Source: Lytechinus pictus (Eukaryota). From it: DNA of 60,000 nt. A model generated the notes under the pieces. It saw only the letters and a list, made by a program, of their open reading frames with translations, did no database searches and had not been told where the DNA came from. The position numbers and the translations under genes were made by a program. The stretch lies in the NCBI RefSeq assembly GCF_037042905.1, contig NC_087245.1, forward strand, positions 9,426,001 through 9,486,000. Direction: 5' to 3'. Shown in pieces: positions 18,001-55,333 of this stretch (position 1 is the stretch's first letter; each line of letters opens with the position of its first letter).

Positions 18001-21000
18001 ATAAAACAGACGGACGACCCAAAATCATAATGCCTCTGGCAACCTTATTTACAGGGAGTGGAGGCATAAAAACATTTGACTAAAAAAGTTATGCCTAAAA
18101 TAATGAAGTTATCAGATACACTCTTGATGGTACCATCTGAACATGGACAGGATTCATCCAATAGTTGAATTCAAACCGAAAATATCCAGGAAGATAATCA
18201 CTGCAAATTATTCACATTAAGATTTACCTATTTAAATAAGAGCATGTGCACAAGAAAATACTTCACCATATTTGATGACAAGATAAATACATGATTTTGT
18301 AAGGATTATTGTTGAATTTTTTCCTATGGAATTTGATTGGCATCAAACTTTACCTCAATGATAGCTTTCATCACAAGACCTGCTCCTTTAACAACCGTCA
18401 TTGATGGATGCTGTCAAAAGAGAAATATGAAATAAGTCAGTATACATGTAAAATGCCCCTCTAGCAAACACATACCTACTCAAGGCAGAGATCTACATTT
18501 AGATAATATTACTTCATTTTCAATTGCAATTTTGACATTTTACATTGTAAAACCAAAGTGTCCTGCAGAACAAGAGCAGCATACCTCTATCAACAGATTA
18601 AATGTTGAGGGGTGCACAAAATCAAATAAAATGCATTATATCATACAAGAATGGCATAATATTTTCCTCATTATTATCATTATCATCACCATCACCATAA
18701 TCATCACCACAATCACCACCACCACCACCATCATCCCTATCCTTATTACCATCCCATTCACCACCACCAGCATCAGCATTCCCCCAGTACCATAATTGAA
18801 ATCACCGCCACCACTACCATCCCCATCCCCACCATCATTATCACTATCACCACCACCAGCATCACCATCATCATTCCCCCAGTACCATAAATGAACTCAC
18901 CACCATCACCACCACTACCATCCCCATCATCATTATCAATATCATGACCACCACCAGCATCACCATCATCATTCCCCCAGTACCATAAATGAACTCACCA
19001 CCATCACCACCACTACCATCCCCATCATCATTATCAATATCATGACCACCACCAGCATCACCATCATCATTCCCCCAGTACCATAAATGAACTCACCACC
19101 ATCACCACCACTACCATCCCCATCATCATTATCACTATCATGACCACCACCAGCATCACCATCATCATTCCCCCAGTACCATAAATGAACTCACCACCAT
19201 CACCACCACTACCATCCCCATCATCATTATCAATATCATGACCACCACCAGCATCACCATCATCATTCCCCCAGTACCATAAATGAACTCACCACCATCA
19301 CCTCCACTACCATCCCCATCCTTATAACAATCCCCATCACCACCATCATTATCACTATCACCACCACCAGCTTCACCATCATCATTCCCCCAGTACCATA
19401 AATGAACTCACCACCATCACCTCCACTACCATCCCCATCCTTATAACAATCCCCTTCACCACCATCATTATCACTATCACCACCAGCATCACCATCATCA
19501 TTCCCCCAGTACCATGAATGAACTCACCATCACCACCACTACCACTACCATCCCCATCCTTATAACAATCCCCATCACCACCATCATTATCACTATCGCC
19601 ACCAGCATCACCATCATCATTCCCCCAGTACCATGAATGAACTCACCACCACCACCACCACTACCATCCCCATCCTTATAACAATCCCCATCACCACCGT
19701 CATTATCACTATCACCATCATCATTCCCCCAGTACCATGAATGAACTCACCACCACCACCACCACCACTGCCATCCCCATCCTTATAACAATCCCCATCA
19801 CCACCATCATTATCACTATCGCCACCAGCATCACCATCATCATTCCCCCAGTACCATGAATGAACTCACCACCATCACCACCACTACCATCCCCATCCTT
19901 ATAACAATCCCCATCACCACCATCATTATCACTATCACCACCACCAGCTTCACCATCATCATTCCCCCAGTACCATGAACGAACTCACCACCATCACCAC
20001 CACCACTACCATCCCCATCCTTATAACAATCCCCATCACCACCATCATTATCACTATCACCATCACCAGCATCACCATCATCATTCCCCCAGTACCATGA
20101 ATGAACTCACCATCACCACCACTACCATCCCAATCCTTATAACAATCCCCATCACCACCATCATTATCACTATCACCATCACCAGCATCACCATCATCAT
20201 TCCCCCAGTACCATGAATGAACTCACCACCACCACCACCACCACTGCCATCCCCATCCTTATAACAATCCCCATCACCATCATCATTCCCCCAGTACCAT
20301 GAATGAACTCACCACCATCACCACTACCATCCCAATCCTTATAACAATCCCCATCACCACCATCATTATCACTATCACCATCACCAGCATCACCATCATC
20401 ATTCCCCCAGTACCATGAATGAACTCACCACCACCACCACCACCACTGCCATCCCCATCCTTATAACAATCCCCATCACCACCATCATTATCACTATCGC
20501 CACCAGCATCACCATCATCATTCCCCCAGTACCATGAATGAACTCACCACCATCACCACCACTACCATCCCCATCCTTATAACAATCCCCATCACCACCA
20601 TCATTATCACTATCACCACCACCAGCTTCACCATCATCATTCCCCCAGTACCATGAACGAACTCACCACCATCACCACGACCACTACCATCCCCATCCTT
20701 ATAACAATCCCCATCACCACCATCATTATCACTATCGCCACCAGCATCACCATCATCATTCCCCCAGTACCATGAATGAACTCACCATCACCACCACCAC
20801 CACTACCATCCCCATCCTTATAACAATCCCCTTCACCACCATCATTATCACTATCACCACCACCAGCATCACCATCATCATTCCCCCAGTACCATGAACG
20901 AACTCACCACCATCACCACCACCACTACCATCCCCATCCTTATAACAATCCCCATCACCACCATCATTATCACTATCGCCACCAGCATCACCATCATCAT

Positions 21001-24000
21001 TCCCCCAGTACCATGAATGAACTCACCATCACCACCACCACCACTACCATCCCCATCCTTATAACAATCCCCTTCACCACCATCATTATCACTATCACCA
21101 CCACCAGCATCACCATCATCATTCCCCCAGTACCATAAATGAACTCACCACCATCACCACCACCACTGCCATCCCCATCCTTATAACAATCCCCATCACC
21201 ACCATCATTATCACTATCACCACCACCAGCATCACCATCATCATTCCCCCAGTACCATGAATGAACTCACCACCATCACCACCACCACTACCATCCCCAT
21301 CCTTATAACAATCCCCTTCACCACCATCATTATCACTATCACCATCACCAGCATCACCATCATCATTCCCCCAGTACCATGAATGAACTCACCACCATCA
21401 CCACCACCACTGCCATCCCCATCCTTATAACAATCCCCTTCACCACCATCATTATCACTATCACCATCACCAGCATCACCATCATCATTCCCCCAGTACC
21501 ATGAATGAACTCACCACCATCACCACCACCACTGCCATCCCCATCCTTATAACAATCCCCTTCACCACCATCATTATCACTATCACCATCACCAGCATCA
21601 CCATCATCATTCCCCCAGTACCATGAATGAACTCACCACCATCACCACCACCACTACCATCCCCATCCTTATAACAATCCCCTTCACCACCATCATTATC
21701 ACTATCACCATCACCAGCATCACCATCATCATTCCCCCAGTACCATGAATGAACTCACCACCATCACCACCACCACTGCCATCCCCATCCTTATAACAAT
21801 CCCCTTCACCACCATCATTATCACTATCACCATCACCAGCATCACCATCATCATTCCCCCAGTACCATGAATGAACTCACCACCATCACCACCACCACTG
21901 CCATCCCCATCCTTATAACAATCCCCTTCACCACCATCATTATCACTATCACCATCACCAGCATCACCATCATCATTCCCCCAGTACCATGAATGAACTC
22001 ACCACCATCACCACCACCACTGCCATCCCCATCCTTATAACAATCCCCTTCACCACCATCATTATCACTATCACCATCACCAGCATCACCATCATCATTC
22101 CCCCAGTACCATGAATGAACTCACCACCATCACCACCACCACTGCCATCCCCATCCTTATAACAATCCCCTTCACCACCATCATTATCACTATCACCATC
22201 ACCAGCATCACCATCATCATTCCCCCAGTACCATGAATGAACTCACCACCATCACCACCACCACTACCATCCCCATCCTTATAACAATCCCCTTCACCAC
22301 CATCATTATCACTATCACCACCACCAGCATCACCATCATCATTCCCCCAGTACCATAAATGAACTCACCACCATCACCACCACCACTGCCATCCCCATCC
22401 TTATAACAATCCCCATCACCACCATCATTATCACTATCACCACCACCAGCATCACCATCATCATTCCCCCAGTACCATAAATGAACTCACCACCATCACC
22501 ACCACCACTGCCATCCCCATCCTTATAACAATCCCCATCACCACCATCATTATCACTATCACCACCACCATCACCATCATCATTCCCCCAGTACCATGAA
22601 TGAACTCACCACCATCACCACCACCACTACCATCCCCATCCTTATAACAATCCCCTTCACCACCATCATTATCACAACCTTCATCACCAGCAACACTATC
22701 ATTACCATTATTACCATCATCATCATCACTGCCATCTCCACTATTATCAATGTTGCTACAAAATCAATTTCAAGAGCATTTTACCTGGAATAATCTATAG
22801 AGGACTCTGCCTTGCTTAGCAACCAGTTCTAATAGCTGATCAAACAGTGTACCATCAGTTGTCTCGCTATACGGCGCACACAGTCCAAATGTCAGAAAGT
22901 CTAGGAGTGAGACTATTACTAGAGCTCCTGTGCCTCGCAGCTAAATAAGAAATGAACAAATGAGAAGTGGCAGTTAGCATATGAAAAGGATATGTGGTAA
23001 ATCAATTTAGTATGCTATTCAGTTATATAGGAAAATCCTAAGGTTGAAACCATTTGCCTTTCTTTTCCTGGGAATTGTTCCTAACATAAGGTCAAATGAT
23101 ATAATGCAAAGACAATTTTTTATACAAGTAATATAATATTTGAGATGCTTTCTAAAAGATTTATCCCAATAGATATCAAATCTTCAAATAGCATACTTTT
23201 ACATATTATATGTTTGACATTGTGAAGTTATATTATTTTGTACAAAGTAATAATGAAAACAAAGAAAAAGAATATTTACAATACTTATTAACACAGGTAG
23301 TGGATGTTATAGCCGAGACCCCCCCCCCCTTCTACTCATTTGCATTTAAATGCAACTCTTTTTCAGACAATCGGCAGTGCACATTAAGGACTTGATTTAT
23401 ACATGTACGTCTGTTTTCAAATGCAAGTTTTACATAACTGATACTCAAAAGAAACAATGGGATTACAGTGGAGAATGTACAGAGAATGTAGATATTGTGA
23501 TTATTCCTACCACATGTTGGCTGAAAAGATCTAAAAGGTTCTCCAGGAAAGACTTTGATGAAAGCAGAGAAGATTTGTTGAGCTGTTCCGTTCTCAGTTC
23601 ATAGTCATCATGCATAGGCTGGACAACAAATAATGTTTTTAGAAAATAATGTTACAGAAAGTCACAAAGTTTTTAACTAAAAATTCATCAAATTTATTTA
23701 TTACAACAGGTAACTTTCACCAATAAGAGAATCATAAAAGGCCAACGAAGAACAAATGAAAATCAATGAAATTCCAGCTAATTTACAGCCTTTCAAAAAG
23801 TCATATCCCACCGTACAGGATCTCTATTAGTAATCCAACACTGGATCACATGTACATGTATAATTTATATTTTGTTTTATCATCTTCTTTGCATATCACT
23901 CTTTCTCAGATTATTAATTTATTTAATATTTAAACAATACATATTTCATTAGTTAGTTAGTTATCAAATTTATTGTTTTATATAAATCACAGACTAAAAG

Positions 24001-27000
24001 ATTTAACCACAATTTCCAGAACATTTTAATGATATCAATACACTGATACAATTTTGTATCACATCTTGCATATAACATTACATGGAAGACAAAACATATC
24101 GTACCATACATTTAATGCAAGGGAAAGGGCAAACAGTTGTTATAAGTAAAACCTAATTGTAACATACCTGCATAAGAGCACATAACATGTCAATAGCTGC
24201 ATGTGTTACACCATCATCCTGCCTTTTCAAGGCCTTCACAACACGAATTCCGACCCTCTCTCGGAACCTAGAAGGGTTTATAAAGAAACATTGTCAAAGG
24301 AGGAATTATGTGATTGATTAGGTTAGGTGCCCAATGAAGATCTGTTGTCCTGAGAAATGAAAACAATTCATATTATATTATAGAATGGATGGGAAAATCC
24401 CTGCAATCTGATTGGTTGAGAGCAATGCAAGAATTTTTACTGGGCTGCATGAACGATATCCCGATAATCAAAACGATATCCACTGTAAACAAGCTATCGT
24501 CCGAAAAGGTCATTGTGATGTCATCGCGCATGTACTGTTACGCTTGTTTACGTCAAAATTTTGAATTTTCGATCAAGGCAGAATGAATCAAATAAAGGAT
24601 GCAAAATGATCTGTAAGTACAAATACGTTACCGTAAATGTCATAGGGATTAAAACTGCCTGCATACTCGTTAGTTGAGAAGTCCAGACATACGATCTAAC
24701 GTTTATAGATCTACTGGCACTGCCCTGGGCTGGCTGTGCACAGCCAAATCTCCAGTGCGGGCCCAGGCGCTAGGCAGCCGTAGGCACTGGCCACCGGAGC
24801 GGCCCGGGCATACACACACAGCTATGGCTGCCTCATAGATCTAGTCAATCACTCAATGCAAAGCTGTATCTGGCATTTTGGGTATAATGATGCCTTTGTG
24901 CCAACATATTATCAAGTTAGGCATACATATTTATGTTTTCCAGGGTTATCAAAGGGTCTGCATTACATTTTGGAATTTTCATGCATCCGGTAAAAAATCA
25001 TGCGTCCAGTAAAAAAAATCATGCGTCCAGTAAATATTTTCATGCGTCCAGTAAATTGAATTTACTGGACGCATGAAATTATCATGCATCCGGTAAATCA
25101 TTAATTTTTGTGGTTTATTCAATAAAATTTTTCCATTCTATAAAACAGATGATGTATGGGTTTCTTTCGTGGGTCAGTGGAACTGTGTGCACGCGGTAAC
25201 TTTGGCATTATGGTCTAAACCCACTCGGCTGCGCCTCGTGGGTTAAACCATGCCAAAGTTACCTTGTGCACACAGTTCCTACTGACCCACTCTAACCCAT
25301 GCATCATTTGTATACTGATGGATAGCTCTCGTGGTTAAGCTTGATGCTTACAATGAAATCATGTAGTTCATCTTCCAATGAAAGTTCCTGTTTAAACTTG
25401 GTACAAAACTACAATATAGATCTAGCGTAATTGACAACATGTCCCTCCAACATCCCAAATCATTTCTGCTTTGAAGCCGACTTACTTTGGTAATGTAGTG
25501 AATGCCCCAAAGCCTGCCTTGGATGCTACTAGTCTCCTCAGGGCTTGAAGGTGACTTTCAAGGATCTCAGCTTGCATTGTCATTGGATCACCTACAAAAT
25601 AGACAGATTGTCAAATATAGAATCATATTGAAAATATCACATAAACCATAGAGCTATTACAGAAGGAGGACCGAGTCTCTCGAACGCTTTGCCCAGACCT
25701 GCCAACCTCTGGGAATGAAAAACTGTATTCTGTGATTAAAAAACTGTATTTTTCCCAAAATTTCATAATAAAATGCTTGGCGCACTCGCTCATCGCGGCG
25801 CTCAAGCTGCATGCAAGCTAAAATGCGCACTGCTCTTGCAGATGAAAAAAAAAACATTAAAACATGTGTATATCATCACCCTGGCTCTAACAAAATGATT
25901 GAAAAAAAAAAACAAGTTACCTGAAATTACATTGATCTAATAACCATATTTGTGTACATTTTATGAAATAGAGACATATAGAGATTATTTTTCTCAATAA
26001 ATTACGATTTAGTAAAAAAAAAAACGTACTAAATACGGCTAAAATTGGGAAAGTTGATTGAATGCAATTTAAAACGCCGTCATTCGGACCCAATGGGTAA
26101 TATCAATAAAATTTACAGATCATAATCAACGAAATATCATAAAAGTTAGGTCTAGATCTATCTCTTCAAGTGCGTCAATTCTAGTATTTTTCCGAAACGG
26201 TCTGGAGCTGAGGCCTGTACTGTGTGAATGAGCTGAGCGCACGAGTTGGAGCTCAAGCATCACACTCACCTTCAACTTACACAAATAGGAGTACGTGGGG
26301 CACCGGAAGATACTCGACGATGCATCAATCGACGTAGAAATGCCCCCATAGATTCCTCGTTATATTTTCAAGGCATACACGACCAACAAATAATCTTACC
26401 ATCTGAATCAACTTTGAAGTATGCTTTTCCCCCTCATTGTAATTTTTAAGACAGGAGCGCACAGGAGAAGGTTTAAATAAAGCAAGAAAGACAGACATGC
26501 GTAAATGACTAATATCCAACTTTCTCTGTAAGTATTGTGGCTGGGTTGAATCAGATTGTAACGTATTTGGTATGTATGCAAAGGGGATCATCTCAGAAGT
26601 TCGACCATACATAAAAGACGTACATCAGGGATCCGTACGAAGAGATATGGATGTTGGGAGAATAGCAAGTCATGTTTCGATTTTGAAAAAAAAACAGAGC
26701 TCGAAGGGAAGTTTTGTGGGAGAACGTCGTTTACGGCGGTGCCTAGCAGGGACCTTCAAAAAATCTCTGACCTCAGATTTTACGAGCGGGCTTATCGCGT
26801 TATGTAAGCGGGCTCTAACTTTCGCCTGGCGGCTCGCCGATTGATGTTAGATATCGTTCCTTTGCCCGAAGGAAGTGATAACAAAGGATTAACAGAGGAA
26901 TTGGAAGATGGTTCTCCTTCTGTAATAGCTCTATGCATAAACATATACCAATCTGTAGCATCAAATATACACATTGAATATAAATATGAACAGCTGTAAA

Positions 27001-30000
27001 AAAAACCAAAAAAAAAACAGATTAACTAGATTATTTTAATTATCAATGCCTAGTGCGCCTAGCGATTAGTTTGGAAACTCTTGCTAGAATACTCCTCAGG
27101 ACGTGGAGAAAGTGCAAACATTCTGTGTGGGTAAGCTAGAATCCAATCAACCAAGATAATAATACACCTATAAAATGCTTAGAAATGTTCCTATGTGTGA
27201 AGTGCTAATAATGGAATGTAATTATCAGTACCCAATCAATGACATCTCAAATGAAAGTTTCATGGCCTTTTTTAATGTGATGAAAATGAAAAATATCATT
27301 GAAGTTTTATGACCAAGGACAACCAATTTTGATAAGATATGTATAGCCAGGGTAATAATAAAAATGTGCCTCGGAATAGATTGTTTCTAGATAGATGGCG
27401 CTATACAAATGCCTATCATCATCATCATCAATATTGATTGATTGATTGATTCAATTTTATTTCTGCACTCAGGCTACAAATATGCAACATAACATCTGGG
27501 TGGTACAATCAAGTTTTACAAAACAATTAAGCAATAGTCATAGTAAAGCAATGAAAAATAAATATTAACAATAAGCAATATTCAATGAAAAGAAAATAAC
27601 AGTTTAAACGAATGCAGGAGACCGCCATCGTGAGCGGTTAAGCTTGAAAATGATGGCGGCCTCGTAAAATGGTACATAAATGTCTTTCTTCATTGATCAA
27701 GTGGGTGCAATGCAGGTGCAGGTGCGGGTGAAGTAAAGGGCAGTTGAATAATTAACTTGAAGAGGGGGATGCATATGATTCGATGATTTTTCTTTTAATA
27801 GTGGCTTTAAGTGAGTATATTGTTGAACATGACTTAACGTTGTTTGAAAAATTGTTCCAAATATCAGGACCATAATGTCGAATTGATTTGTGAGTTATTA
27901 ATAATTTAGGGTTGGTGAGATGAAGGTTTCCTGATGTGCGGGTTGGGTAGGAATGAACAGACCTGTTAAACCTAAACATATCATTAAAGGATGGAGGAAG
28001 TTGATTATTAAAATATTTGAACATAAAGATGGCTACTTGGATCGTATTGATATCAAAGATTTTTAAGGTTTTAAGTTTATGAAACAATGGGTCAGAATGA
28101 GCCAAGTAATGTGACCGTGTGCACATACGGATTGCTCTTTTTTGTAGTTTAAAGACAGAGTTTAGTTTGAAAGAACCACAATTTGCCCAGACGATATTAC
28201 AATATGTTATATAAGGGAGGACTAATGAATTGTATAACAAGAATAAAGTTTTGTCAGGAAGAGTGAATTTTAACTTGGAAATTATCCCAATACTTTTAGA
28301 AACGGACATCGTAACATGGTGTATGTGTTGATTCCAAGTCAAAGATTCGTCCATAATTACACCTAAAAATTTAGATTGTTTTTTCTGTTCTAGGGGGGTG
28401 CCGTCAATGTTAATGTCAATCGGTGTGTTAATGTTATGGGAATGGTGTCTGAAATACATAAAATGTGTCTTTTTTGTATTAAGGGATAGTTTATTGGCTT
28501 TGAACCAGTTTGATACTTTATCAATTTCACGATTTACGATATTGGTTAATGAATTAAGGTCTCTATGAGAATAAAATATATTTGTGTCGTCGGCAAATAA
28601 AACGAAGGATAAAATAGAGGAGGTTGTAATAATGTCGTTAATGTAGAGTAAAAATAAAAGTGGGCCTAAAATGGAACCTTGAGGGACACCACATCGAACT
28701 AAAAGAGAATCAGAGTCGTAACTGTTAAAATTGACATATTGCCTTCGATTATTTAAGTAGTCTTTAAAAAATGAGAGACATTGACCTCGTATTCCATAAT
28801 GGTTGAGTTTGGATAGTAAAATTTCATGGTTGAGGGTGTCAAACGCTTTACTAAGATCGCAAAAAATGCCAATTACGTGTTCTTTGTTCGCTATGGCATT
28901 TGTTATTTTGTCATAAATTTGAAGTAATGCTAAGTCTGTTGAATATTTTTTTCTAAAACCATATTGATTACAATTTAGAATGTTATATTTGTTTATGAAT
29001 TTATAAAGTCTTGTGTAAACTATTTTTTCTAGAATTTTAGATATTGTTGGAAGTAAGGAAATGGGACGGTAATTACTTATTTCGTGAGGGTTGTCTTTTT
29101 TAAAAATCGGATTTACTTTTGCTATTTTGAATAAGTCTGGAAAAACACCTTGAGATAGGGAGTTATTAAATATGTGAGTCAAAGGGCTGGCAAGAGGGTG
29201 AATTATTTGCTTAAGAAGAGACATGTTAATGCCATCGCAACCAGAAGATCTAGAATTATGAAGGGAACGAACAATAGTGATTATTTCGGAGGGGTTTGTT
29301 GGGGCTAAAAAAAGAGATTCTTGATTTGGATCTGAGAGGTAATCTGTAAAATGTGCGTTGGGACTATTAATTTTGTTTGCAAGCTCGGGCCCAATATTGG
29401 TAAAGAAAGAATTAAATGAGTTTGCATAATTAGTGGGATCAAGTATTTCAGATCCATTGAGAGTGATTTTATCATTAGGTGGGGGGTGTGTTTTTGTACC
29501 CAACACTTCTTTGATAATTTTCCAAGTCGTATTTGTATTACCATTGGCATCGTTAATTTTATTAGCAAAGTGCAATTTTCGGGATATTCGAATTAATTTT
29601 GTTAGTTTATTACGATATATTTTATATTCTTTTAAAGAATCATCAGTTGGATTGCGTAAGTGATATTTATATAGGCGATTACGTGTCTGTATGGACTTCA
29701 GTAAACCTTTAGTTATCCAAGGATTTTTGGGTTTGTTACGTTGGTTTTTTACTTTACCTATAGGGATATTCTTTTCATAATAATGTTTTAATGTATTATT
29801 GAAGTTATTGTATGCAATATTGGGATTTACTTCATTATAAACATCATCCCATTCTTCCAAAACTAGGTCTTGCTTCAGTAATTCTATATTTTGTTTAGAT
29901 TCTTTACGATAAGTATATTCTTTGTTTGATTTGGGGAAAGAAAGTTTACATTCACAAGTTAAGAAAATAGGCAGGTGGTCCGAAACTTCTGAACATAAAA

Positions 30001-33000
30001 TCCCTCCTGTGGCTTTGTTATTATGAACATTCGAAAATATGTTATCAATCTGAGTTGATGAATTCAAGTTAATCCTTGTGGGTTTATTAATGATAGAAAT
30101 AAAGCCAAACGAATATATCAATTTCATGAAATTGGATGAATTATTAATGTCAGATGAGGGCAAGAAGTTAATATTAAAATCACCGAGCAAAAAAAAATGT
30201 TTGTTTTCATTCCCTATTTCATGAAGAAAATATTCTAGTTCATCGTGAAAACGATCGATATTTGTATCAGGGGGTCTATAAATTAATCCTATGATGATAT
30301 TTTTGGAATTAGAATTTTCAATCTCTATAAACAATGACTCTGCATGCAATAATTTAACATCAGATCGAATCTTAAATTTGAGATTTTGTGAAATGTAAAA
30401 AGCAACTCCTCCTCCTCTTCTTCCCTTACGGTCCGCCCTTATTAATTTATAATTAGGTATATTAAACATGTCAGGAGAATTTTCATGTAGCCATGTTTCG
30501 CTTAAACCGATGACTGAAAACTGAAAGTTATTTAATGAGTGTAAGAGGTTAACTAAATATTCAAAGTTGCTATTTAGACTTCTTATGTTTGCATGTAAAA
30601 GGGATAGATTATCTGGAGTAAAATTAAATTCGTTGTTGAATTCTTGGGGAGTGTAATATTTGCTATCTTGCGGGTTCTCAATGAAAATATCTGGAGTAAA
30701 AGTATGTGACTCAAACAGGGGGACGTAAAAATGTAAAGTACCGGAGGTTTGGAGAGAGGTCAACTGCAATTGTGCAAGTGGTGCATGTGCGTGGGTGTGT
30801 GTGTACAGGTGTATTCATGTGTGAAAGTGGTGCTAGTGTATCAACAATAAAAACATAATATATGAATGCAAAAAAAGTAAGACCCATCTTGGTCAATGAT
30901 GGCTGGGCAGCAGAGCAGAGCTCGACCACCCTAAAAATACAATGGATAAGGCAATTTCAGCAAATAAAAACTTAGAGTTTACTACGAGGGGATTGGAAGA
31001 AGACAATATTTACAAAAAAGAACAATGAATCAACAAGATTGAGTCAATACTATAGATTTCTAAGCATGTAACAAAAAGATTCTTACATAATCTACATTGA
31101 ATCAATACATTGAAATCGCATTACACACTTTTCAGTCTGGAAAATACCGAGAATGGTCTACATCAAAGGGAGTATTTTTTTTCTCCTAGAAATCTGTTGC
31201 CGTGAGGAATAAATAAAAGAGGGAGACTGGAAATGAGCTTTGAATTAATTTGGAAGTATATAGAGAGTTCAAGAATGCACTACAAGCCCACTATTCACAG
31301 TTTAATAATATAGTAATGGATCTCTTTTCTGACAAACCGATTAAAATATTTGAGTAGTCAAAGAATAAGATGGGAACTAATTAGGGCCTTTTCTAAGTTG
31401 TACAAAGAGATTAAGCAGTTGGGGCCAAAAGAATGGGCGTATACGGCATAGTGATTGATTGAAAAAGTGGCAGGAAAAAACACTAGTGATTTCAAAATAC
31501 AAGACCAACACAATATAATGGATCCATCATGTGGCTGAAAAGACAAGACCAAAAACTAGTATACATTCTTGTGTATTAAGCATAACCAAGCATAATCAAC
31601 ACAATCAGGAATGATTTACTTAAAGGTAAATTGTGTCCCCCCCCCTCTCTCTCTCTTCCCTATTCTTCTTTTTACAAACGATTTAAAGGCTGTTGTTTTG
31701 ATCAATGACCGTCCAAAAGTAAATTTTATGAACAAAACAGCCGGATATCTACGTTGAAGTATGCATTCTTATACACGTGAATGTACAAAAACTATAGATA
31801 GAATTTTGTATACAGGTTGTTGCTGCTTTATAAAAAGAAATATATATTGTATGTCATGACTTGCCGCTGTGGAGAGAGAGAGAGAGAAGGGGAGGGGGGT
31901 GGTAATACTGATTGGTGCAGAGCAGGAGCGTTTGGTTCACTCATGCTATTCATCGACCAATAAAATTCATGAACAATGTTATAGGCGGGAAATGACCAGT
32001 GGTGCATAAAATCCACGCCCTGTTTGGCGAGACCTGTGGATATGGGCAAACGAATGAAGTGAATAAAAGAAGCTATATAATCGCTTTCTTACTTGACAAG
32101 TTGTTTAAAATATTTGGAAAAGTTAAGGAATGAATCGTATTATTAAGTTAGGACTCTGCTTATTTGAATAAGATTAAGCCGTTGCCAAACAAAGGGTATT
32201 GCCTTTTGGAATGAATCATAAAATTGGCGGGAAAAAATCTCTATAGAGAAGTAATTTAAATACATGTCAAGGACGAGATTAAATATAATGGTTACTTCAT
32301 GTACCTGAAGAGAATGTCACTGACATCAATATACACTCTATAGTCATGTGAGAGGGTGGACCCCCTCTCTCTCTCCCTCCCTTTACAATTGGCTCAAAGA
32401 ATGATCGTTAAACAACATTTGCATTAATCAATTCAGGTCTGTTGATAAAAGATAAAGGGATACTGATTTTGAACTAAGTGCAGATTATTGCTTCTTTACC
32501 AAATAATGTATTAATTACGTAATGAGATGTCATTAAATAGGCTGAGAGAGAGGGAGGGGGGGGGGTTGCATAGGCCAAAGCAGATTGCTTATTATGGTCA
32601 GTGCATAATGTTCTCTCATGCTCAATCGACCAATAATATTAATGAACAACGTGAAAGGCGGGAAATGACCATCGGTGCATAAAGGCCACGCCAAAGGGCC
32701 ACGCCTTATTGGGTGAAACCTGTGGATGTGGCATGCAAATTTAACTCCAACAATGCGTGTACAATAAGCAAAATCTTTAACAGTGTAACAATATGTCAAT
32801 TCAATAGTAATCTTTGTTGACGAACCGTTTAAAATATTTTATAAGTATAAGGTGAACACATGAGAAGCCCAGTAAATAATCTTTTAACAAAATGTATAAA
32901 TATTTTGGAAAGTCAAAGAATGAAATTGTGTCGGAATTTAGGACTGTACTTAATTGGATTAAGCCGTTGCCACATAAAGAGGTAAGCGTATAGGAATGAA

Positions 33001-36000
33001 ACTGAAAAGTGGCGGGAAAAACAACTGCATAATATGCAAGTAAATTTATTACATGTCAAGTACGAGACAAAAAAAATAATGGTTTCTCCATGTACCTGAG
33101 AGAACGCCACTGGAATTAATATACATTCTATACATTATGTATAAGCATAATCAACTATAAATGACATGATTTAGGTGAACCATATTCTCTCCCTCCCGCT
33201 CTCTCTTTCTTCCCTCTCTTTTTGGATCGACAGAGAGGATGTTCGTGACCAATTCCAGTCTGTATGTGAAATATAAAATTGGATGTTGATTTTTTTTTTT
33301 ACAAAACATACAAAATAGCGTCGAAGCATTATGATATGTAGAATAGGCGTGTTAAGAAAAGTCGATTTGTATAGTTATGCAGATATTTGTAAACAGATCG
33401 CTGCTGTATACGAAATAATAATAACATGCCATTGAATAGGAGAGAGAGAGGGGGGGGGGTGAATTAACATAGGTCAATGCAGTTTGGTTTGGAATGTACT
33501 CTCATACTCGCTCGACCAATAATATCAATGAACAGCGTGGAAGGCGGGAAATGACCATTGGTGCATAAAAAGCCACTCCTTATGTGGATGCTGCCATGCG
33601 AATTAAATACTACAATGTGTGTACAAGAAGCTTAACACTTTTCGGTGTAACAATAAGTCAATTCAGTAGTAATCTTGTCTGACGAACCGTTTAACATATT
33701 TGACAAGTCAAATAATGAATTCGTAATCCAATTGGGACACTTCTTAATTGGTTAAAGAGATTATGATGTGACACACAAAATGATGGGTTTGCAGTATAAT
33801 TAAATGGAAAAGTGGCGGGAAAAATATGTAAAATAGGAGATTGGAGTAATTCCTTCATCAGGTTTCATATACAAAAAAAAAAGTTTTTAATTCAAAGATT
33901 GATCTACGGAAAAGACCAACTGGTTAAACAAGAGAATTGTGTATGATAATAGTTTTGAAAACTTTAGTCATATAAAATACAAGACATATTATGAAGACAG
34001 TTTCTTCTTTTTCTTTTTAGGTAAAATTTACATAAAACATGTTTTAGCAAAATGAAGATCAACACCTATTGCAACCGATGTTAAGCAATCTTTATCTTAA
34101 TATTGATAATTATGATCGGCAATCACCATTGCACAGTCTGGAAGGTGTAGTTGTTAAGTACATTCCGAAAGAGAAAAATAAAATCAAAATCATTCAGTAT
34201 ATTTTGAATTATCTATGCTGTAATTTGCATTCGTTTCTCTGGTTTGTTTTGATTTTCCTTGATCGATTATAATTAATGGATTGCTTCCCTGGATCAGGGT
34301 ATCACAGAATTTAAAACACAGCAATAACAATAAGTATATCCATTTATTCAATGTATAAATGTCCAGGCTTCAAACGAACTTGATTTGGTATAAGGTTCCA
34401 TTCTTAAATGAATATGGGGGAAAAGTCATAAAGGCTGCTAGCAAATTTTGATTTTATTATTAACAGGTAGCATCAATAAAAATTCTGAGAAAACAGATAA
34501 CTTCACTTTTACCATATAAACCACCTCATTTATACTTGGTTAAACAAAAAATTGTAATAAAGAAAGAGAGAAAACAAGCCTGATCTGCCCCGATATCAAC
34601 AGTATAGGCTCGTGAGCAAAATGTACGATAATTGGTTGGACAAAAGTTAGCCTGAATCAAAATAAAAATATCAATATCATCATCATCATCACCATCACCA
34701 TCACTATCACCATCACCATCATCATCATCATCATTATGGTCTAACTTACCTTCGTGAGCCAAGAGAGCAGTTAAAGCACCATTGATTAGTTTCTCTTTGT
34801 TCTCAGCAAAGAATCCCTTCAATTAAAAGAATAACAACATTATTACAGAATAATTGAAATTGAAAATAATCACATGGGAAATTCCATTAAACAATCAACC
34901 TTTTGTACACATTGAACTATAACTGTGAAAACAAAACTGTATTTTATCTGGCATGTTAAATTCCACATTCATTTTGCATGATTAATAGATCATGATCATT
35001 ATGAATGGCGGTCTTTACTTCTGAACAGTTACAAAATTTGTCTAAGATCTGTGCAATATTCTGTACGCGTCATTATTTTTAAAGGATCTCAATTAATTTG
35101 GTCACATGTTATAATGGACAGCAGACATGGTAAGTTCTTATGAATTGAACACCTTGTGTAAATCATGCTTGGCCCAAGTAGTGAGAGGTTAATTTACATT
35201 ACTTACATCTTGTGTGACAGCATGTAAAAGACCACTATAAGATATGTTGTTATTGAACCTCATAACTGCTTCATCAAAGTTGTTGTCTGAAAAACATAAT
35301 AAAACAAAAAAAGAACACCCTTAACTTCAGATTTCCATGAAGACAGTATCTAAAAATCATTATTTCTGCCCAATACAACCATCTTTGTGCTCATTTGCTG
35401 ATTCTTAAGCAAAAGACTATACCAAATGAAATGATTTTACTTTATTTTTTTATCTAAACATTTAACTGGTAGGAACTATATTTTATCAAAATATTTTCCA
35501 ATAAGAAACTTCATAAGAATTCAAGCCATATTCTAGAATATAAACCCCTAAATTATACATAGCTTCCTCTTTCATTTTTATATCATATAAATAAAAAAGC
35601 ATTTTGAAGGGTTTATAATAGTAAAATAAGCTCATTTCCAAGAGAAGTTGCTAAATCTGACATAACACATTAAATATTCTAGAAATAATCAATACACAAA
35701 TATTCACATAACAGTCACTACACTTTTAGAATATTGGAATGCTATAATATAAGTGAAATATAATTCACATTTTTATTATCATTAAAATTCTTTAAATTAA
35801 AATAACTTACTGTATGGCACTGCTAAGAAGCGTAAATGATGACTCTCGACATCTTCATCGACTGGTACATAGAGGGGCTGCTGCCTTTGACCTCTATTTG
35901 TGAAGGTCATTTTTACACAGACATCTCTGTTGCCACTAGCCCTAACTCCATCTAAAACTCCAGCTATTAAATTATCCCTGAACACAAACAATGAAAAATG

Positions 36001-41701: not shown

Positions 41702-43133
41702 CTTGGTGATTCATATAGCTTTACTGAAAAAATAATATGAGATTCAAACAAAAATATTAAGGCACTGGCACCTTAAAGTGTATCAGCACCAGACCTGCAT
41801 GTGATCAGTTTTATTTACTAAACAAATAACATTCATCACTGACAGACACCGTCACCAACTATAAAGAAGAAAAAATTGACATAAAATGTAGCCTACACTG
41901 CACAGCCAGCCTTTAACCTGCGACCTCTTGCATATTACAGGCCTACCAACATTTGAAAATGAAAAAAGTAGTCCTAAATGCTAGATGTCAGATGTGTCTC
42001 CCTCACTTTTTTTTAATTCAGACATGTTTAGCATTCTTATATTTAAACAAGTGCTGAGAAAATACAAGTGCTTAGAAACTATATTGGGTACTCTTTCTTC
42101 CATACCCACACCCAGGCATTATATTCCCTTCTGAAAAGTACATATAGCCAAGGGTTGCTAAGTCCTCCCCAAAGTCCGAGATGCCCCAGTTGGGGTTACA
42201 AGCTCTTGCATAGTAAGAAATCGAAAGTGATTTTTCAAGCCAAGTCTGCATGATAGCTTTATCATTTGACTTTAAAAAGCAGTCAAAAACAGCATGCGCA
42301 TGCACGAGGGTCCGAGCTGACCCTCGCGAATGCGCATGCGATGTTTTGAAATCGGCAGCGAATTATTTATATGTGTGAGGAACTCAATGTTGGCTCTAAA
42401 TCACCAATTTAGAGGCTAACCGGAGGATGGATATGGAGTGAAATTAGGATGAAAAGTAAGAAATTAAGCTTCTTATTCTTTTAAATCTAGTTTGGTGTAG
42501 GATTTTTACAATATGCATTTTTTCCCACCTTTGCCACTCGGAGTATCAGAGCGAATTTTGGACCTTGAAGTTCAGGTACAAGTAGGTGGAGCGTAGTGTA
42601 GCGGTAGTGAAATGGAGTGGAGCCTGCACAAACATCACTACTCAATCACCATGATCACATGCAGGCCAGTCACTCTGGGGCCGATTGCACGAAAGGGTCT
42701 TTACAAGAACCGTCTTTCGTGTCGCCCATTTATTATATTATGATGCGCCATGAGAAACGCATTTTACATAATACATACTGATTTATATAGCGCAGAAACT
42801 ATGTGCAAATATTCTACTGCGCTGCAATTAAGAGCTAGTGAAATGCTTGAGAACAAAATTAGAAAAGGGGGTGAAAAAATGTATGGGAATTATTTAAACA
42901 GATAGGTTTTTAGTTTATGTTTGAACGTTTCTACTGATGGACAGGATCTTATTACATAAGGCAAACCATTCCATAACTTGGGGGCTGCACAGGCAAAAGC
43001 ACGATCTCCCAAAGTTATCTTTGTATTATGAGTGGGGATGTGAAGGAGCAAATTATCATGAGAACTATGCAGGTTGTGAGAGTGTCTGTGAACTTTTCTT
43101 TGTAAAAGCTCAGAAATATAAATGGGGGCTTGG

Positions 43134-44326
43134 CAGGGTAGGAATTACACGGGGGCGACGGGCGATTTTGCCCCCATGACAGCCCAAATCGCCCCTAAAA
43201 ATTCTCAAAACCCAATGCTTTGGGGCGACTTTTTATTTCAGAATCGCCCCAATAAAATACCATCGACAATGTAAAAAATACTTCACATAATTACGTTCTC
43301 CGGCGGCGGAGCAGGCGCATCTTTTATATCGCCCTTGCCAGCTAAGTTGAACGGTCGATCGATGCAATATCCAAACCTTCCGTAACACCGGAAGCTTCGC
43401 GATTGTAAAATAAACGCGCAATGCAATATGGGATGCGGAGTGTACACGCATAGTCTTTAGCACGGGGTTTTTAGAATTATTGACGCACTTGCCGCATGGC
43501 TTATGTACATGTTCGCGTGCACGATTAGACTGCACAGCTGGTAACGAGACCACGTGCATCGTACGGTATATTATGTATACTAGGCCTAGGCATGCACAGA
43601 ATTGTATGCGATCAGCTGGTGATTGTGACAGCACTGATTATCGACATCGTCGAGTCGCAGTGCGAGATGGATAAGTTTCTAATTCGAGTTCAACCTGGCT
43701 CTGCCAAACGGCCAGAGCCAGCGCAAGAAGCCTCTCCAAATCGAGATACTGTTGAGAAGGATAAGCCAAAAAAGAAACAGAAAAAGAAACAGTACTGTAC
43801 AGAGACAATCGACAATAAAGTCTTGGGGCCTCGATTGGCTCAAATCTGAAGTGTGTGAAGCTGAAGCTCTGGTGCACTAGCGTACCTACGGGGGGGGGGG
43901 GGCAGTCTGCCCCCCCTGACGAGTCCCAACCCATGCACTTTTCTTTTTTTTTTTTGCTTGTCAATTTTTTTTCTGGTACGAAATCTTATATTTGTGGTTG
44001 AAGACTTGTTTATATTTATTTGCTTGTCACATTTTTGGGCGGACGAATTTGCCCCCCCCCCCCCGTGTGAAAAATCCTAGGTAGTGCTGCTCTGGTGGGA
44101 TCACTGTTGTTTTTTGTAAGGCCTGTAGCCTACAGTAATTACAGTTAAAAATGTTCTGAGCTTTTAGGCATCACATTGAGTCTCGGAATGTCAAAAGGTA
44201 ATTGCTGATATGCGATAAAAAAAGTAGCCCCATGAATTAGAAAATAGCCCCAAGATATTCAGTGGTAGCCCCAATGTTAAAAAAAAAAAAAGTAGCCCCT
44301 AAAAAAAAAAATTAATTCCTACCCTG
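43134..44326 (+). mobile_element. Internally deleted hAT element
   Basis: TIR CAGGGTAGGAATTA; perfect 8-bp TSD GGGCTTGG; residual transposase-like N-terminus MDKFLIRVQ...KPKKKQKKK (~43667-43850). Confidence 0.88.
43875..44089. mobile_element. Small MITE nested inside the hAT element
   Basis: 8-bp TSD CTCTGGTG (43867-43874, 44090-44097); poly-G/poly-C subterminal tracts. Confidence 0.75.
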
Positions 44327-45005
44327 GGGCTTGGCCACTCAGTGCCTTGTATACGATTAACAAAATCTTAAAAGATATTCGTTGGCGAACTGGAAGCCAG
44401 TGCAGATCTTTAAGACAGGGGTGATCCTTGAAAATCTAGATAAATTTACTACAAATCAGCCGTGCACATGCGTTTTGTACTCGCTGAAGACGCCCAATTT
44501 GAGACAAGGGGAGCCCATACAGCAAACTGTTACAATAATCTACCTTATACCCAGTTGTTGTGTGTCCGATCAATTTTAGAAAGTCATTTGGAAAAAATTA
44601 CAAGCGAAGTTTCATCAATTTTTAGTACAAAATGTTAGAAAATATTAGAGAACAAAATAGAAGACGATTACAACTATTGAATTCATGTTTTTAGTTTAAT
44701 CTTAAAACAAAAAAGAAGGTTAAAAAATATAAAGTGTCCGGACACCCGACCCCCCATCGCATGCATGGACAATTGTTTTCATGCTTTCATCGTCAAAGTA
44801 TTTTCGTATACGTCTGAGGTTGTATATCATATGAAATGAAGATTTACACACATTGGTGATATGTGCTTCCATATTCAATTGCGAGTCAAAAAATACTCCA
44901 AGAGTCCAAGATTTCTTACATAATTAGAATTTGGTTCTATGACTGTACTGCCAACTGATATCCCGTCAAAATCTAGCTTATTCAGTTGTTTATATGTACC
45001 GATTA

Positions 45006-52606: not shown

Positions 52607-55333
52607 ACAGCTCGCGCTTCGCGCTCGCATTCTTGTTTGATTAGATTACCATCTTATTCATCATTGCAAAAAGTGTTCAGTGTTAAAGTGTAAAATAAAA
52701 AACCAAAGATCGCGCTCGCAACAATTTCTTAGTTCCATGCCCACCCTCTTCGTGGTTACATTACTTCGAATGTCCTGTTTATAGTTCTAAATCTGTTTTA
52801 AAAATATCAGCGCGCGCTTCGCGCTCGCTCTATTTGATTAGTGAGAAATGTACTCTACACACGAGTCACTGCAAACAGTCATTAACAGGTCCTCTTTCAG
52901 CTCGCGCTCGCATGAAGTACTTAGTTATATATACTGTGTGAGTCGGAAATTAAAATTGTCAGCTAATCCTTTTCATGGTTAGGCCTACAATCGAGTTTTC
53001 TGGTCTTGATATATTAATTTCTCAGCTTGCGCTTCACGCTCGCATTTGTAGATTGGTGAGATATGTATTCTATTCATGGATCATCGCAAACACTCTTTAA
53101 CAGGTCTTTTTGCAGGCCAGTTTATCTTGTTTCTAAGAATGAAAATTTTGTTATGACTAACCCCTAACATTAAAAAAAAAATCGGATGCTGGGGGCAGCG
53201 ACGGGGAAATTTTGAAAATGTGAATGAACGTATCCCCCCCCCCCCATTGATGAAAGCTGGAGCTACCCCTGAATATGACAGAAAATGTGACTTAGGAGTA
53301 TAAGAATCTCCAAAATGACTTACGGCCCGGTAATCAGGGCCTCCAGCCCCCCCCCCCCCCCCCCCCCGCACACACACACATACTAACTGAAAAAGGCCTA
53401 GTGACGCCCTCCATCCCCATTTATTCGCCAGTGCCGGGAAGGATTAAAATTATGAAAATGATTATGCCATGTATAATATAATAAAACATTCAACGATTAT
53501 TCTATTTCATCCTGGACCTTTATTTTGTGTCTTTCTCCGTCCACCTTTTCTAAAAGTTTCTGAAAGGAATGGCTTCACCAAAATAAACAACAGAAAATCA
53601 TGCGGGGAAAAAAAATCGATGGCAATCATGCGGATAATACGATAATCATCACTATCATCGTGATTATCATCATCATCTTCTATATACTGAAATACTCCCT
53701 TGCTTATACTTGTCATATGATTCATCGTAAATAATAAAATTTTCTACCGTATATCTGTACATTGGGGGTGATAATCAGGCCATCCCTATATACCCAAAAT
53801 ATTGGGGAGGATATCCCACATTCTCCCCCCCCCCCCCCTGAATCGTCACCCTTGCACTCGATCCTGTTCCCATTATACTATAGAGCCTGGGAGTACATGA
53901 TGAATTAAACTTACATGATAAACTCGCCTATTATTTTGTCCACTATCCTCCTCAAATTACTAAATTAGCTCAAAGATATAGGTCTATTGAAGCTAATTTT
54001 GGAAATATTCAACAAACCTTTATTGACATTTCGAAAAAGCATCTTGAAGATGTAAAAGGCATAACCAGGCAATATAGTCTACAACTTTGGTTGACAAATA
54101 CATGGGGAGCGGAAAGGTTTGGCGGGGGGCGGGGGTCAGCACCCTATACCTTTCGGTAATCGAGTTAAAAAAAACATGAGATTGACCTTCAGATTGTGAT
54201 TATTTATGCGTATTCTGCCCACCCCTCCCCCTTTGTCTCATTTTGTGCCCCCCCCCCCCCCCATTTTCAAACTCGTTTCACTGCCCCTGATACAAACAAA
54301 CAAGTCTTTATACACAGAATTAAAAGGAATCTTCGACATGCGTTTATCGTAAATAAACTGATAGGGGCGCCTGGAGGCGGGGCAGGGCTGGATGCAGTTA
54401 CCCTTGGCTATCAAAGGGGGGGGGGCAAAACGCACCTCATAAATAGATAGAAAGAGGCGAAGAAGAAAATTAGAAGCAAACGAAGGAAAGACGCGGAAAC
54501 ATTCTCCTAGAAACGCTCATGTATTTGGTTAAGTAATTTTAGTGAAATTTGATAAGCAAAAAAATGGAAGTTTAGAAGAAAAAAAACCACACTGTACCTT
54601 TCCCGCTATCAATAATGGATGCAGCCATGTAGAAAAAAATTGCATAAACTATATTTTAGAATCATTGGAATGACAACCCCACCCTTTTACGCATATAATT
54701 AAAATACAATACACATTTGTCGTTTCTAGTTTGGCCTTTTCACGTAAAGTTTCTTACATCGGAAAGCTGCAATAATTAATGCTACGTGTCAAATGAAAAT
54801 TGAAATAATATCAATCGTGTATACATACAGTATATATAATGTATTCTTTTTCTTCTTCCTAGCCCCTTTTTTTTCGAGGGAGAAAATGTATTACGGTGCG
54901 TTTGACGCCCGCTTTTTTAGAGGCGGTGACTTCCCCTTGAGCTCTCGAAGTTCCAAAAGCCACATGGCTGTTATCATTTTTAATTGTTTGCTTCTGTGTT
55001 GACTCAGCATTCGTTTCATTTATCAAACCAATTAGATTTTAATCACTGATCTTCTTTTGAAAGAATTATTATAATGAACTTCCTCTTTCTCTGTATATAC
55101 AAAGACAACTCGTTGTCATTAGTTAGTTAATTTTTAATGAATTCGTTTACATGTTTCTTCTCAATCTGATAGTCTACTTAGTCTTGAGGACTTGAGGTGA
55201 CTTCCATCAATATATCAAACGAAATGTTGCTCCTCTAGTCGAGCCTGCTAACATTTTCAAGTTCTCCGTGTGAAAACTTAGGTGTTTCCTGTCATTGTAT
55301 GCATAACGGGGCAGGAAGGCAAGACTGAATAAA

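Follow-up and report, generated by a model that had tools for sequence, protein, structure and literature searches.

An intronic LINE insertion of about 7.24 kb is best read, with a probability of roughly 0.55, as a young, single-ORF element of the CR1/L2-like type (Jockey superfamily, a placement to be taken with a reverse transcriptase tree whose rows include no named reference elements), whose lineage appears to have swapped ORF1 for a 5' region of 3.95 kb in which one cis-regulatory module underwent tandem amplification long ago. Candidate sites for cell-cycle-type factors within this region probably tie the activity of the element to cell division, to judge from their sequence. The window referred to below is the whole 60,000-nt stretch of Lytechinus pictus DNA that was analysed.

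The insertion, ORF2 and the host gene

The features of the locus are as follows.

25592-34749, minus strand: host intron of an RME-8/DNAJC13 gene, about 9.16 kb (donor/acceptor joining, Pfam exon matches)
27427-27434, no strand: 3' copy of the 8-nt target-site duplication, its final 2 nt common with the tail; (ATC)4 lies ahead of it at 27415-27426
27435-34669, minus strand: whole LINE insertion (ATCAATAT duplications at both ends splitting one (ATC)n tract; unbroken coverage in three contig runs, X1, X5 and X10)
27435-27452, minus strand: (AATC)n tail, following AATAAA (from sequence)
27618-27663, minus strand: 3' UTR stem-loop (z -4.75; an equally good fold in 0 of 200 shuffles)
27752-30814, minus strand: ORF2 frame, 1020 stop-free codons, APE endonuclease and reverse transcriptase
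30719-30930, minus strand: ORF2-proximal leader after an acceptor-like TAG (from sequence, function putative)
31200-31540, minus strand: partial unit M4, with an acceptor-like CAG ending at 31535 and an E2F-type site at 31469-31477
31541-32297, minus strand: unit M3, 757 nt; E2F-type sites 32226-32234 and 31984-31992, CCACGCC 32013, CCAAT block 31954-31963, CT tract 31871-31899, GA tract 31636-31661
32298-33082, minus strand: unit M2, 785 nt; E2F-type sites 33011-33019 and 32657-32665, CCACGCC 32699 and 32686, CCAAT block 32627-32636, CT tract 32544-32565, GA tract 32361-32384, acceptor-like CAG ending at 32305
33083-33885, minus strand: unit M1, 803 nt; E2F-type sites 33814-33822 and 33543-33551, CCAAT block 33513-33522, CT tract 33438-33459, GA tract 33199-33223, acceptor-like CAG ending at 33096
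33886-34669, minus strand: non-repeated 5'-most segment lacking E2F sites, perhaps with a decayed stub of a unit around 33958-33985 (best self-match E 0.018; X1 and X10 both cover the segment)
34670-34677, no strand: 5' copy of the target-site duplication (8 nt); the longer part of the (ATC)n tract then runs on to 34734

Both copies of ATCAATAT (27427-27434 and 34670-34677) extend an (ATC)n tract in register, which places the 5' end of the element at 34669, as the preliminary description had proposed from the duplication. The duplication is short (8 nt) and lies within a microsatellite. The sense orientation within a host intron, also claimed there, was borne out by matches to Pfam RME-8_N in six of the seven minus-strand exon frames tested around the element and by an in-frame join of donor 34749 to acceptor 25592; the LINE begins 80 nt past this donor.

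ORF2 matches Exo_endo_phos (75-280) and RVT_1 (572-820). With an ORF running from endonuclease to reverse transcriptase, a simple-repeat tail with a duplication, and a depth pattern of 5' truncation, the insertion has the features of an APE-type LINE, and its 3' UTR stem-loop is, as a predicted fold, a feature of stringent-type LINEs. A PHD finger (by Pfam) and a 2A motif were looked for in ORF2 and neither was found; more distant relatives do possess the PHD finger. In close relatives ORF2 starts with a Met about 40-60 residues ahead of the endonuclease, where this copy has CTG/TTT (30718). Within the leader, an upstream ORF of 58 codons (30887-30711) ends just beyond that start position. The element may resemble Crack/Daphne. 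A cluster look-up of close ORF2 proteins returned no name for 10 of 10. Among 89 candidates in viral contigs there was no relative of ORF2, and 80 metagenome and 39 genome-bin loci reached at most 60% best-segment identity with the element. The 5' region was matched by none of these 119 loci, and its conserved block had no match in metagenome contigs.

Composition of the 5' region

The 3.95-kb 5' region holds neither ORF1 nor a remnant of it, in agreement with the earlier claim that no ORF1-sized frame lies upstream of ORF2. The longest stop-free frame fully within 30930-34669 has 101 codons, and an ORF1 of the Jockey-superfamily L2 lineage (Tnp22-like, CCHC, esterase or PHD type) is not found upstream of ORF2. 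A decayed ORF1 was ruled out by tblastn with 18 ORF1-like proteins from relatives (no match, best E 0.10) and by an HMM of 11 of the 18 (nothing in the 5' region, best E 0.87), which recovered 11 of 11 held-out members as a control. An ORF1-like frame ends about 170-1,070 nt ahead of ORF2 in 18 of the 29 relatives with enough upstream DNA. The preliminary description would have been undermined by ORF1 in other ORF2 copies; these 18 relatives do carry one, but all are 30-46% identical and fall outside the 21-row clade that includes the window element (quick tree, SH-aLRT 98, omitting L056, L094 and L098 for short coverage), so that the comparison concerns relatives more distant than the closest ORF2s.

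The approximately 3.5 diverged monomers first noticed were recovered as three full units and a partial fourth (full units about 780 bp, 36% GC), with pairwise identities of 69, 61 and 65% as against 36-49% in shuffled controls. The further suggestion that the whole region of about 3.9 kb is built of monomers holds in part: the array (about 31200-33885) makes up about 2.7 of 3.95 kb and begins about 780 nt inside the 5' end, but the segment at 33886-34669 has faint unit likeness at most.

The E2F-type 9-mer TTTCCCGCC occurs six times in the 5' region, twice per full unit and in two unlike contexts in each, and not once in the remaining 56 kb (0.058 copies expected by chance); CGACCAATAA occurs three times in the region and nowhere else in the window. 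Of the runs invariant in all three units, the longest four (16, 12, 11 and 10 nt) coincide with both E2F sites, with the CCAAT block and with TTTATGCACC. Their summed length was matched in 0 of 257 and 2 of 345 simulations, all run under a single uniform rate without gene conversion, at an identity of 0.47 in the first set (0.52 observed) and 0.57 in the repeat. Site A lies 31 nt from CCAAT in all three units, site B lies 242 to 354 nt from site A, and the CT tract follows 57-86 nt beyond CCAAT. The E2F-type site in M4 is the seventh; here a CpG-type transition at 31472 disrupts it, whereas X1, X5 and X10, which represent two organisms, all retain it intact (substitutions against contig runs were read from 40 of 661 rows). 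The blocks bearing E2F and CCAAT motifs are more conserved than the rest of the unit, as the comparison of motifs with spacers first suggested had to show. Among the best-conserved blocks initially named, TTTCCCGCC (two per unit) and CCAAT stood; CCACGCC did not, being present twice in unit 2, once in unit 3, and as CCACTCC in unit 1. An E2F consensus and a CCAAT box are thus present and conserved in the units, as expected in sequence of an E2F/NF-Y promoter, and with these blocks held while the spacers drift, the motifs look selected. Myb-like words are not enriched (5 vs 3.4 expected). TAATCY is mildly so (11 vs 4.5 expected).

That the 5' region belongs with ORF2 is supported by other samples. 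ORF2 and the array are contiguous in a single 4,430-nt contig of X1, which covers 28688-33110 and differs there by 20 letters and 7 gaps; the contig has a depth of 18.6 vs 2.8-10.8 in five flank bins, where summed contig depth is a proxy rather than a copy number and the library type is unrecorded. The X1 copy could be an allele of the same locus. In X10, from a second organism (B), the array is about 90% identical and its eight bins average 9.1 times the five flank bins. On the same proxy, depth climbs toward the 3' end of the element in X10 and X5, and in X10 it falls toward 34669 from 542 (M4-M3) to 192 (M2-M1), 118 and 52, as 5' truncation predicts, with a hint of a step near 32300-32770. 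The array therefore does not look unrelated to the element, the outcome on which the preliminary description would have failed. A joint in X10 from 33824 to 31486 (depth 244) may reflect another unit order or an indel of about 135 nt before M1.

Proposed activity and competing readings

We propose that ORF1 was lost in the lineage, with the 3.95-kb 5' region in its place, and that one cis-regulatory module was tandemly amplified long ago, its spacers diverging. Going by known factor families, each unit would form a directional Pol II module of E2F/DP sites, a GC-box-like site, an NF-Y site at 31 nt and a CT tract. According to the available part of PMC7793273, a CCAAT box precedes the start site by 60-100 bp, and NF-Y is found together with E2F4 and E2F1; the CT tract would lie at this usual CCAAT-to-start distance if transcription starts there. 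The units would raise transcription in cycling cells, additively if the model borrowed from mouse L1 applies. Because the array sits 0.8-3.5 kb inside the 5' end, it is no simple upstream promoter of a full-length RNA. Moreover, 72 AUGs lie between the 5' end and ORF2, 18 of them past the last CT tract, which makes the full-length RNA unlikely as the ORF2 message. The anatomy suggests that ORF2 may be translated from a shorter RNA, by an internal start and/or splicing to the acceptor near 30930, and that whole-array copies would derive from RNA starting at 34669 and recognised via the 3' stem-loop. The 72 AUGs did not figure in the preliminary description. We counted against the proposal the position of the array inside the element, the 18 AUGs, the missing ORF2 AUG at the start position of the relatives, and the depth of 0-0.4 over the array in the RNA run X21 described below.

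A bolder form of the proposal, which we hold to be speculative and doubtful, is a two-RNA cycle. The internal E2F/NF-Y modules would give a short or spliced ORF2 message in proliferating cells, and the AUG-blocked full-length RNA would be copied in trans via the stem-loop, in the manner of a SINE; such an element would be cell-cycle-timed, would lack cis-preference, and would have been kept in at least two organisms.

An array that belongs to the LINE might bind E2F mainly as a brake, with RB/DREAM- or E2F6-type silencing in resting or somatic cells and activity upon release, the sites being kept to limit harm or to confine the element to the germ line. We consider this unlikely. The identical sequence evidence serves both it and the activating proposal. 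GGCGGGAA is also the E2F6 motif. In the available parts of the sources, the E2F/Rb sites of L1 promoters act with HDACs (PMC2894050), NF-Y/E2F4 can repress, and E2F6 is a repressor (PMC7793273). The raw RNA run X21 (about 6% sampled) is consistent with a brake at low power, as it has no array reads (depth 0-0.4 over 30354-34685) and host exon bins reach only 1-2 themselves. A selfish element, however, should presumably lose rather than amplify a purely repressive site, the CCAAT at a fixed distance before the CT tract suits an activating core promoter, and CHR-like TTYGAA is not enriched (8 vs 7.6 expected).

An independent origin of the array, as a repeat in its own right or as captured host promoter/first-exon cassettes that became attached to a 5'-truncated LINE with a normal ORF1 in its master copy, is rather improbable; the composite would have moved or duplicated only a few times. 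The 18 relatives with ORF1 and the 8-nt duplication inside a microsatellite would fit such an origin, as would the roughly 6-fold fall in X10 depth at 31075; given that the bin 30715-31075 is this much deeper than the next, some relatives may have another 5' end. Against it, those relatives lie outside the clade of the element, X1 runs unbroken from array to ORF2, and the array recurs in organism B. X10 per-site depths are also alike on either side of the junction (342 at 30176, 860 at 30936, 621 at 31260 and 552 at 31490), although no contig bridging ORF2 and array was among the 24 of 9,019 X10 pieces listed. The array as a DNA transposon is unsupported, no terminal inverted repeats being found around it (best E 0.26).

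We think it improbable that the conserved features work in RNA, as splice acceptors, as a paired CT/GA domain per unit, or as a ribosome-entry or packaging signal replacing the function of ORF1, with E2F likeness incidental. The 72 upstream AUGs do call for an RNA-level solution, and acceptor-like (Y)nCAG stands at three of three unit junctions, but acceptor-like words are not enriched overall (15 vs 11 expected) and the 15 of 70 joints listed included no spliced one. The CT tract pairs with the GA tract about 160-215 nt downstream in all three units (z -2.7, -3.2 and -6.6), while none of 14 comparable tracts from the rest of the window has a partner; these segments, however, were chosen once the tracts had been noticed, and the pairing is no stronger between own partners than between swapped ones. 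No fold is predicted for the 60-nt block of highest conservation (z +0.45, +0.85 and -0.42, with 0 of 13 pairs compensated). An Rfam search that covered the conserved block gave no match at E<=1 and hence no sign of a known ribozyme or snoRNA. RNA-level features may nevertheless exist alongside the promoter role.

Neutral tandem duplication, with blocks alike by short gene conversion or chance, is very improbable: there are just three full units, and a run of at least 16 nt arose in 9 of 345 simulations, but the joint statistic was matched in just 2 of the 345, the invariant blocks fall on a 9-mer that every unit carries twice, at separate places, and the M4 site, which contains a CpG, has stayed intact in two organisms.

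Relation to known elements

Under the favored reading of a single-ORF LINE with an amplified E2F-CCAAT module, the element offers a testable case of a young family in which several diverged copies of a defined module have been retained. An active element would be a LINE timed to cell division, and with every insertion host genes would receive six or seven E2F sites together with signals resembling splice acceptors. How ORF2 is produced behind an AUG-rich leader of about 4 kb is a question that the element poses.

The nearest precedents, in the L2 and CR1 lineages, are single-ORF elements whose 5' region is repetitive, namely L2 subgroup 4 and CR1 subgroup 6 (Metcalfe and Casane 2014; PMC4120745). 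They share with the present element a Jockey-superfamily-type APE-RT, apparently one ORF, and repeats 5' of it. Their ORFs open with a PHD finger, unlike that of this element and its closest relatives, which start just before the endonuclease; the available part of that paper does not describe the motif content or promoter role of the repeats. Zebrafish ZfL2-2 is likewise a one-ORF LINE, mobile and with mostly short target-site duplications, for which the available part of the source mentions no long monomer array (PMC2666801).

The monomers of mouse L1 act additively as promoters and contain E2F/Rb sites, and the A, TF and GF types resemble this element in having tandem 5' UTR units upstream of a non-monomer tether. 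Mouse L1, as described in the available text, has ORF1, YY1, and GC-rich monomers of about 200 bp, variable in number, at the very 5' end (PMC2894050), whereas the units here are 757-803 nt, 36% GC and 61-69% identical, lie behind a 780-nt unique head, and contain CCAAT. The analogy drawn in the preliminary description therefore stands as to tandem 5' UTR units but is loose, the units being four times longer, diverged, and apparently position-specific in two organisms.

Amplified E2F sites borne by transposons are known from Brassicaceae MITEs (Henaff et al. 2014, as cited in PMC5950925); those are non-autonomous DNA transposons with in vivo E2F binding, according to the available part of the citing paper, whereas the sites here are candidate E2F sites. 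Human L1 SpIREs also have splice sites within a LINE 5' UTR, but their splicing strips parts of the promoter and leads to dead ends (PMC5860796, available part), while the splicing predicted here might be needed for ORF2 translation. An ORF1-less LINE with an E2F/CCAAT array was not found in the literature searched, which consisted mostly of openly accessible papers. Separately, each ingredient has been described before: repetitive 5' ends in single-ORF L2 elements, monomers acting as promoters, and transposons that carry E2F sites.

Boundaries of the element and its host intron

The LINE occupies 27435..34669 (~7.24 kb), and the features discussed here are as follows.

27752-30814, minus strand, ORF2 frame of 1020 codons with Pfam endonuclease and reverse transcriptase domains
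30711-30887, minus strand, upstream ORF of 58 codons, its stop 5 nt past the position at which relatives start ORF2
33083-33885, minus strand, first full array unit (M1, 803 nt)
32298-33082, minus strand, second full unit (M2, 785 nt)
31541-32297, minus strand, third full unit (M3, 757 nt)
31200-31540, minus strand, partial fourth unit (M4)

Downstream of ORF2, the 3' UTR carries a strong stem-loop (z -4.75), AATAAA and an (AATC)n tail. Copies of ATCAATAT at 27427-27434 and 34670-34677 each prolong an (ATC)n tract in a shared register, and deletion of the 7.24 kb between them rejoins a single tract. The 8-mer occurs 12 times in the window and is weak evidence by itself; it is the restoration of one (ATC)n tract upon removal that supports both an 8-nt target-site duplication and 34669 as the 5' end, in agreement with the preliminary description. 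The rejoined tract forms the tail of a short repeat of very high copy number whose end lies near 27415 (27353-27416 is its 3' end, in opposite orientation), and the LINE is inserted into this microsatellite tail. Other copies of the repeat terminate in (TAT)n at loose ends.

The host gene is RME-8/DNAJC13, with RME-8_N matches in six of the seven exon frames tested and a donor (34749) and acceptor (25592) that join in frame. The LINE was correctly described as sense-oriented within a host intron, and begins 80 nt past the donor. In the same intron, a high-copy repeat at 25661-26021 has strongly strand-biased coverage (473 vs 40) in the raw RNA run X21. Between RME-8 exons (18759-22702) is a 4-kb tandem array rich in CAC/CAT, its periods being 98, 119 and 122 nt, and a 21-nt tandem repeat with two near-perfect inverted repeats (24- and 30-nt arms) adjoins a host exon (24979-25279). 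Elsewhere in the window are a 3' fragment of a second LINE, from a different family (57776-58741, plus strand; 38% identical to the window ORF2, one in-frame stop), an unbroken 483-codon rhodopsin-family GPCR frame (55307-56758, plus strand), and broken frames apparently interrupted by other sequence (42893-44923, minus strand), which we take to be similar to the 3' portion of an L2-type ORF2.

Loss of ORF1 in the element's family

Within the ~3.95-kb 5' region, the longest stop-free frame has 101 codons. Of 119 related loci, 29 have 718 nt or more ahead of a near-complete ORF2; these were examined, and 18 of them have an ORF1-like frame ending ~170-1,070 nt upstream of ORF2. Domain scans of five of the 18 proteins returned coiled-coil, Baculo_FP_2nd and, once, a weak Transposase_22. 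None of the 18 matched the 5' region (best E 0.10), and an HMM built from 11 of them found nothing there while recovering 11 of 11 held-out members. The claim that no ORF1-sized frame lies upstream of ORF2 was thus confirmed. The ORF2 of all 18 ORF1-bearing relatives is only 30-46% identical to that of the window, and those included in a quick tree fell outside the 21-row clade containing it. Loss of ORF1 is shown for the family of the window element and not for the whole clade. The closest ORF2 proteins (51-88% identity) mostly have a Met start ~40-60 residues ahead of the endonuclease and are without a PHD finger, whereas more distant ones have one. Animal-type ORF2 relatives are also encoded at 39 loci in bacterial or archaeal genome bins (L081-L119), probably through eukaryotic contamination; in L083, the relative lies amid small unrelated ORFs on a 108-kb contig.

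The tandem array and its linkage to ORF2

The array (~33885-31200) comprises three full units and a partial fourth, with pairwise identities of 69, 61 and 65% among full units against 36-49% for shuffles. This agrees with the ~3.5 diverged monomers described previously, although the array does not include the element's initial 780 nt. Each full unit has two copies of TTTCCCGCC, in two dissimilar contexts, and there are none elsewhere in the 60 kb (0.058 expected); CGACCAATAA is found once in each unit. The two E2F-type sites, the CCAAT block and TTTATGCACC form the longest runs invariant across all three units (16, 12, 11 and 10 nt). Of the uniform-rate simulations, 0 of 257 run with lower background identity and 2 of 345 run with higher identity reached the summed length of these runs, and 9 of 345 reached the longest run alone; the motifs are therefore more conserved than the spacers. 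E2F-type sites and CCAAT had rightly been named among the best-conserved blocks, but CCACGCC, also named, is present only in units 2 and 3. Site A, the E2F-type site near the CCAAT block, lies 31 nt from it in all three units, and the other spacing varies by 112 nt. The conserved block gave no conserved RNA fold and no Rfam match. TAATCY, presumably Otx-like, is found in all four units (31413-31421, 32176-32184, 32961-32969, 33763), with a Myb-like YAACKG just ahead of it in three (CAACGG twice, CAACTG once). TTTCCCGC is an E2F/DP site. The array is a real feature with motif-focused conservation; a function for it is inferred.

Four of 23 listed sequencing runs were compared with the window. 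The library type of X1 (organism A) is not on record; a single contig of 4,430 nt from this run covers 28688-33110, differing from the window by 20 letters and 7 gaps, and X1 may represent an allele of the window locus. Array bins average 3.2x the flank bins in X1 and 9.1x in X10 (organism B, probably DNA), as summed contig depth, which does not equal copy number; in X10, array depth falls toward the 5' end from 542 to 192, 118 and 52. The contig joining ORF2 to the array and the multi-fold excess in X10 bear out that the 5' region belongs with ORF2, and we put at about 0.85 the probability that this feature is part of the LINE. None of the X10 pieces listed (24 of 9,019) reaches from ORF2 into the array, and bin 30715-31075 has six times the depth of the bin that follows, although per-site depths are alike on both sides. 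Since X10 contigs match single units at ~90% (e.g. 33511-33948, 44 other letters, depth 191), the units appear to be position-specific and to predate the split of both organisms. Every contig of X1, X5 and X10 that covers position 31472 has G there, so that the M4 site is a perfect TTTCCCGCC; the CpG-type change carried by the window copy did not appear in these runs. Among 14 differences listed at 30936-33049 (from 40 of 661 substitutions and 12 of 141 indels), only 31472 falls in a motif core; one other is an extra A directly behind CCAAT. Among the 15 of 70 joints listed, one in X10 connects 33824 to 31486 and may reflect a different unit order or an indel before M1. In X21 (~6% read), 5' region depth is 0-0.4, which says little because host exon bins reach only 1-2.

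Proposed function and comparison with known elements

NF-Y binds CCAAT boxes, which usually lie 60-100 bp upstream of start sites, and is found together with E2F4 and E2F1 (PMC7793273, in part). Past the CCAAT box, every unit has a CT tract with its start at 57-65 nt and its end at 78-86 nt; given the usual NF-Y distance, each unit is predicted to be a directional core promoter, active in cycling cells, with E2F sites that may either activate or repress. Because the array is internal to the 5' end, a copy retaining it must derive from RNA that starts upstream, and for such RNA the array could only be a downstream element. Counted from 34669, 72 AUGs stand ahead of ORF2; 18 are left when the count begins at the last CT tract, and 4 when it begins at an acceptor-like TAG (30930). 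This load suggests translation of ORF2 from shorter or spliced RNA. Both points make the analogy with mouse L1 less simple. Acceptor-like (Y)nCAG is present at all three unit junctions; no splicing was seen among the 15 of 70 joints listed. The 58-codon upstream ORF has a hydrophobic start, a frame different from that of ORF2, a short stretch of (CA)n where the two overlap and no Pfam match. Where relatives start ORF2, the window copy has CTG/TTT; it may therefore initiate at a non-AUG codon or be damaged. In stringent LINEs, recognition is through a 3' stem-loop (PMC3747384, in part), by which untranslated full-length RNA could be copied in trans. Complementary CT and GA tracts close a 200-270-nt domain in each unit, and such a partner accompanies 0 of 14 similar tracts elsewhere in the window; the tracts had no partner specificity, so this pairing is a lead only. 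The ORF2 leader (30760-30800) and 3' UTR start (27695-27735) share, on the minus strand, a CAC/GCAC-rich tract and a CCATC...GATGG hairpin core.

Searches of the largely open-access literature turned up no publication describing an E2F-CCAAT array in a LINE of this kind. E2F sites have been amplified by MITEs in Brassicaceae (cited in PMC5950925, in part), and splicing of the L1 5' UTR produces dead-end copies (PMC5860796, in part). ZfL2-2 is mobile with one ORF and makes mostly short duplications (PMC2666801, in part). Single-ORF L2 and CR1 subgroups have a highly repetitive 5' region like the window element, but their ORF begins with a PHD finger (PMC4120745, in part). Mouse L1 monomers are additive promoters with E2F/Rb sites, given as TTT[G/C][G/C]CGC (PMC2894050, in part). 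The window element, of Jockey-superfamily type, falls outside the mouse-L1 definition, but in its predicted working it resembles a monomer-promoter LINE.
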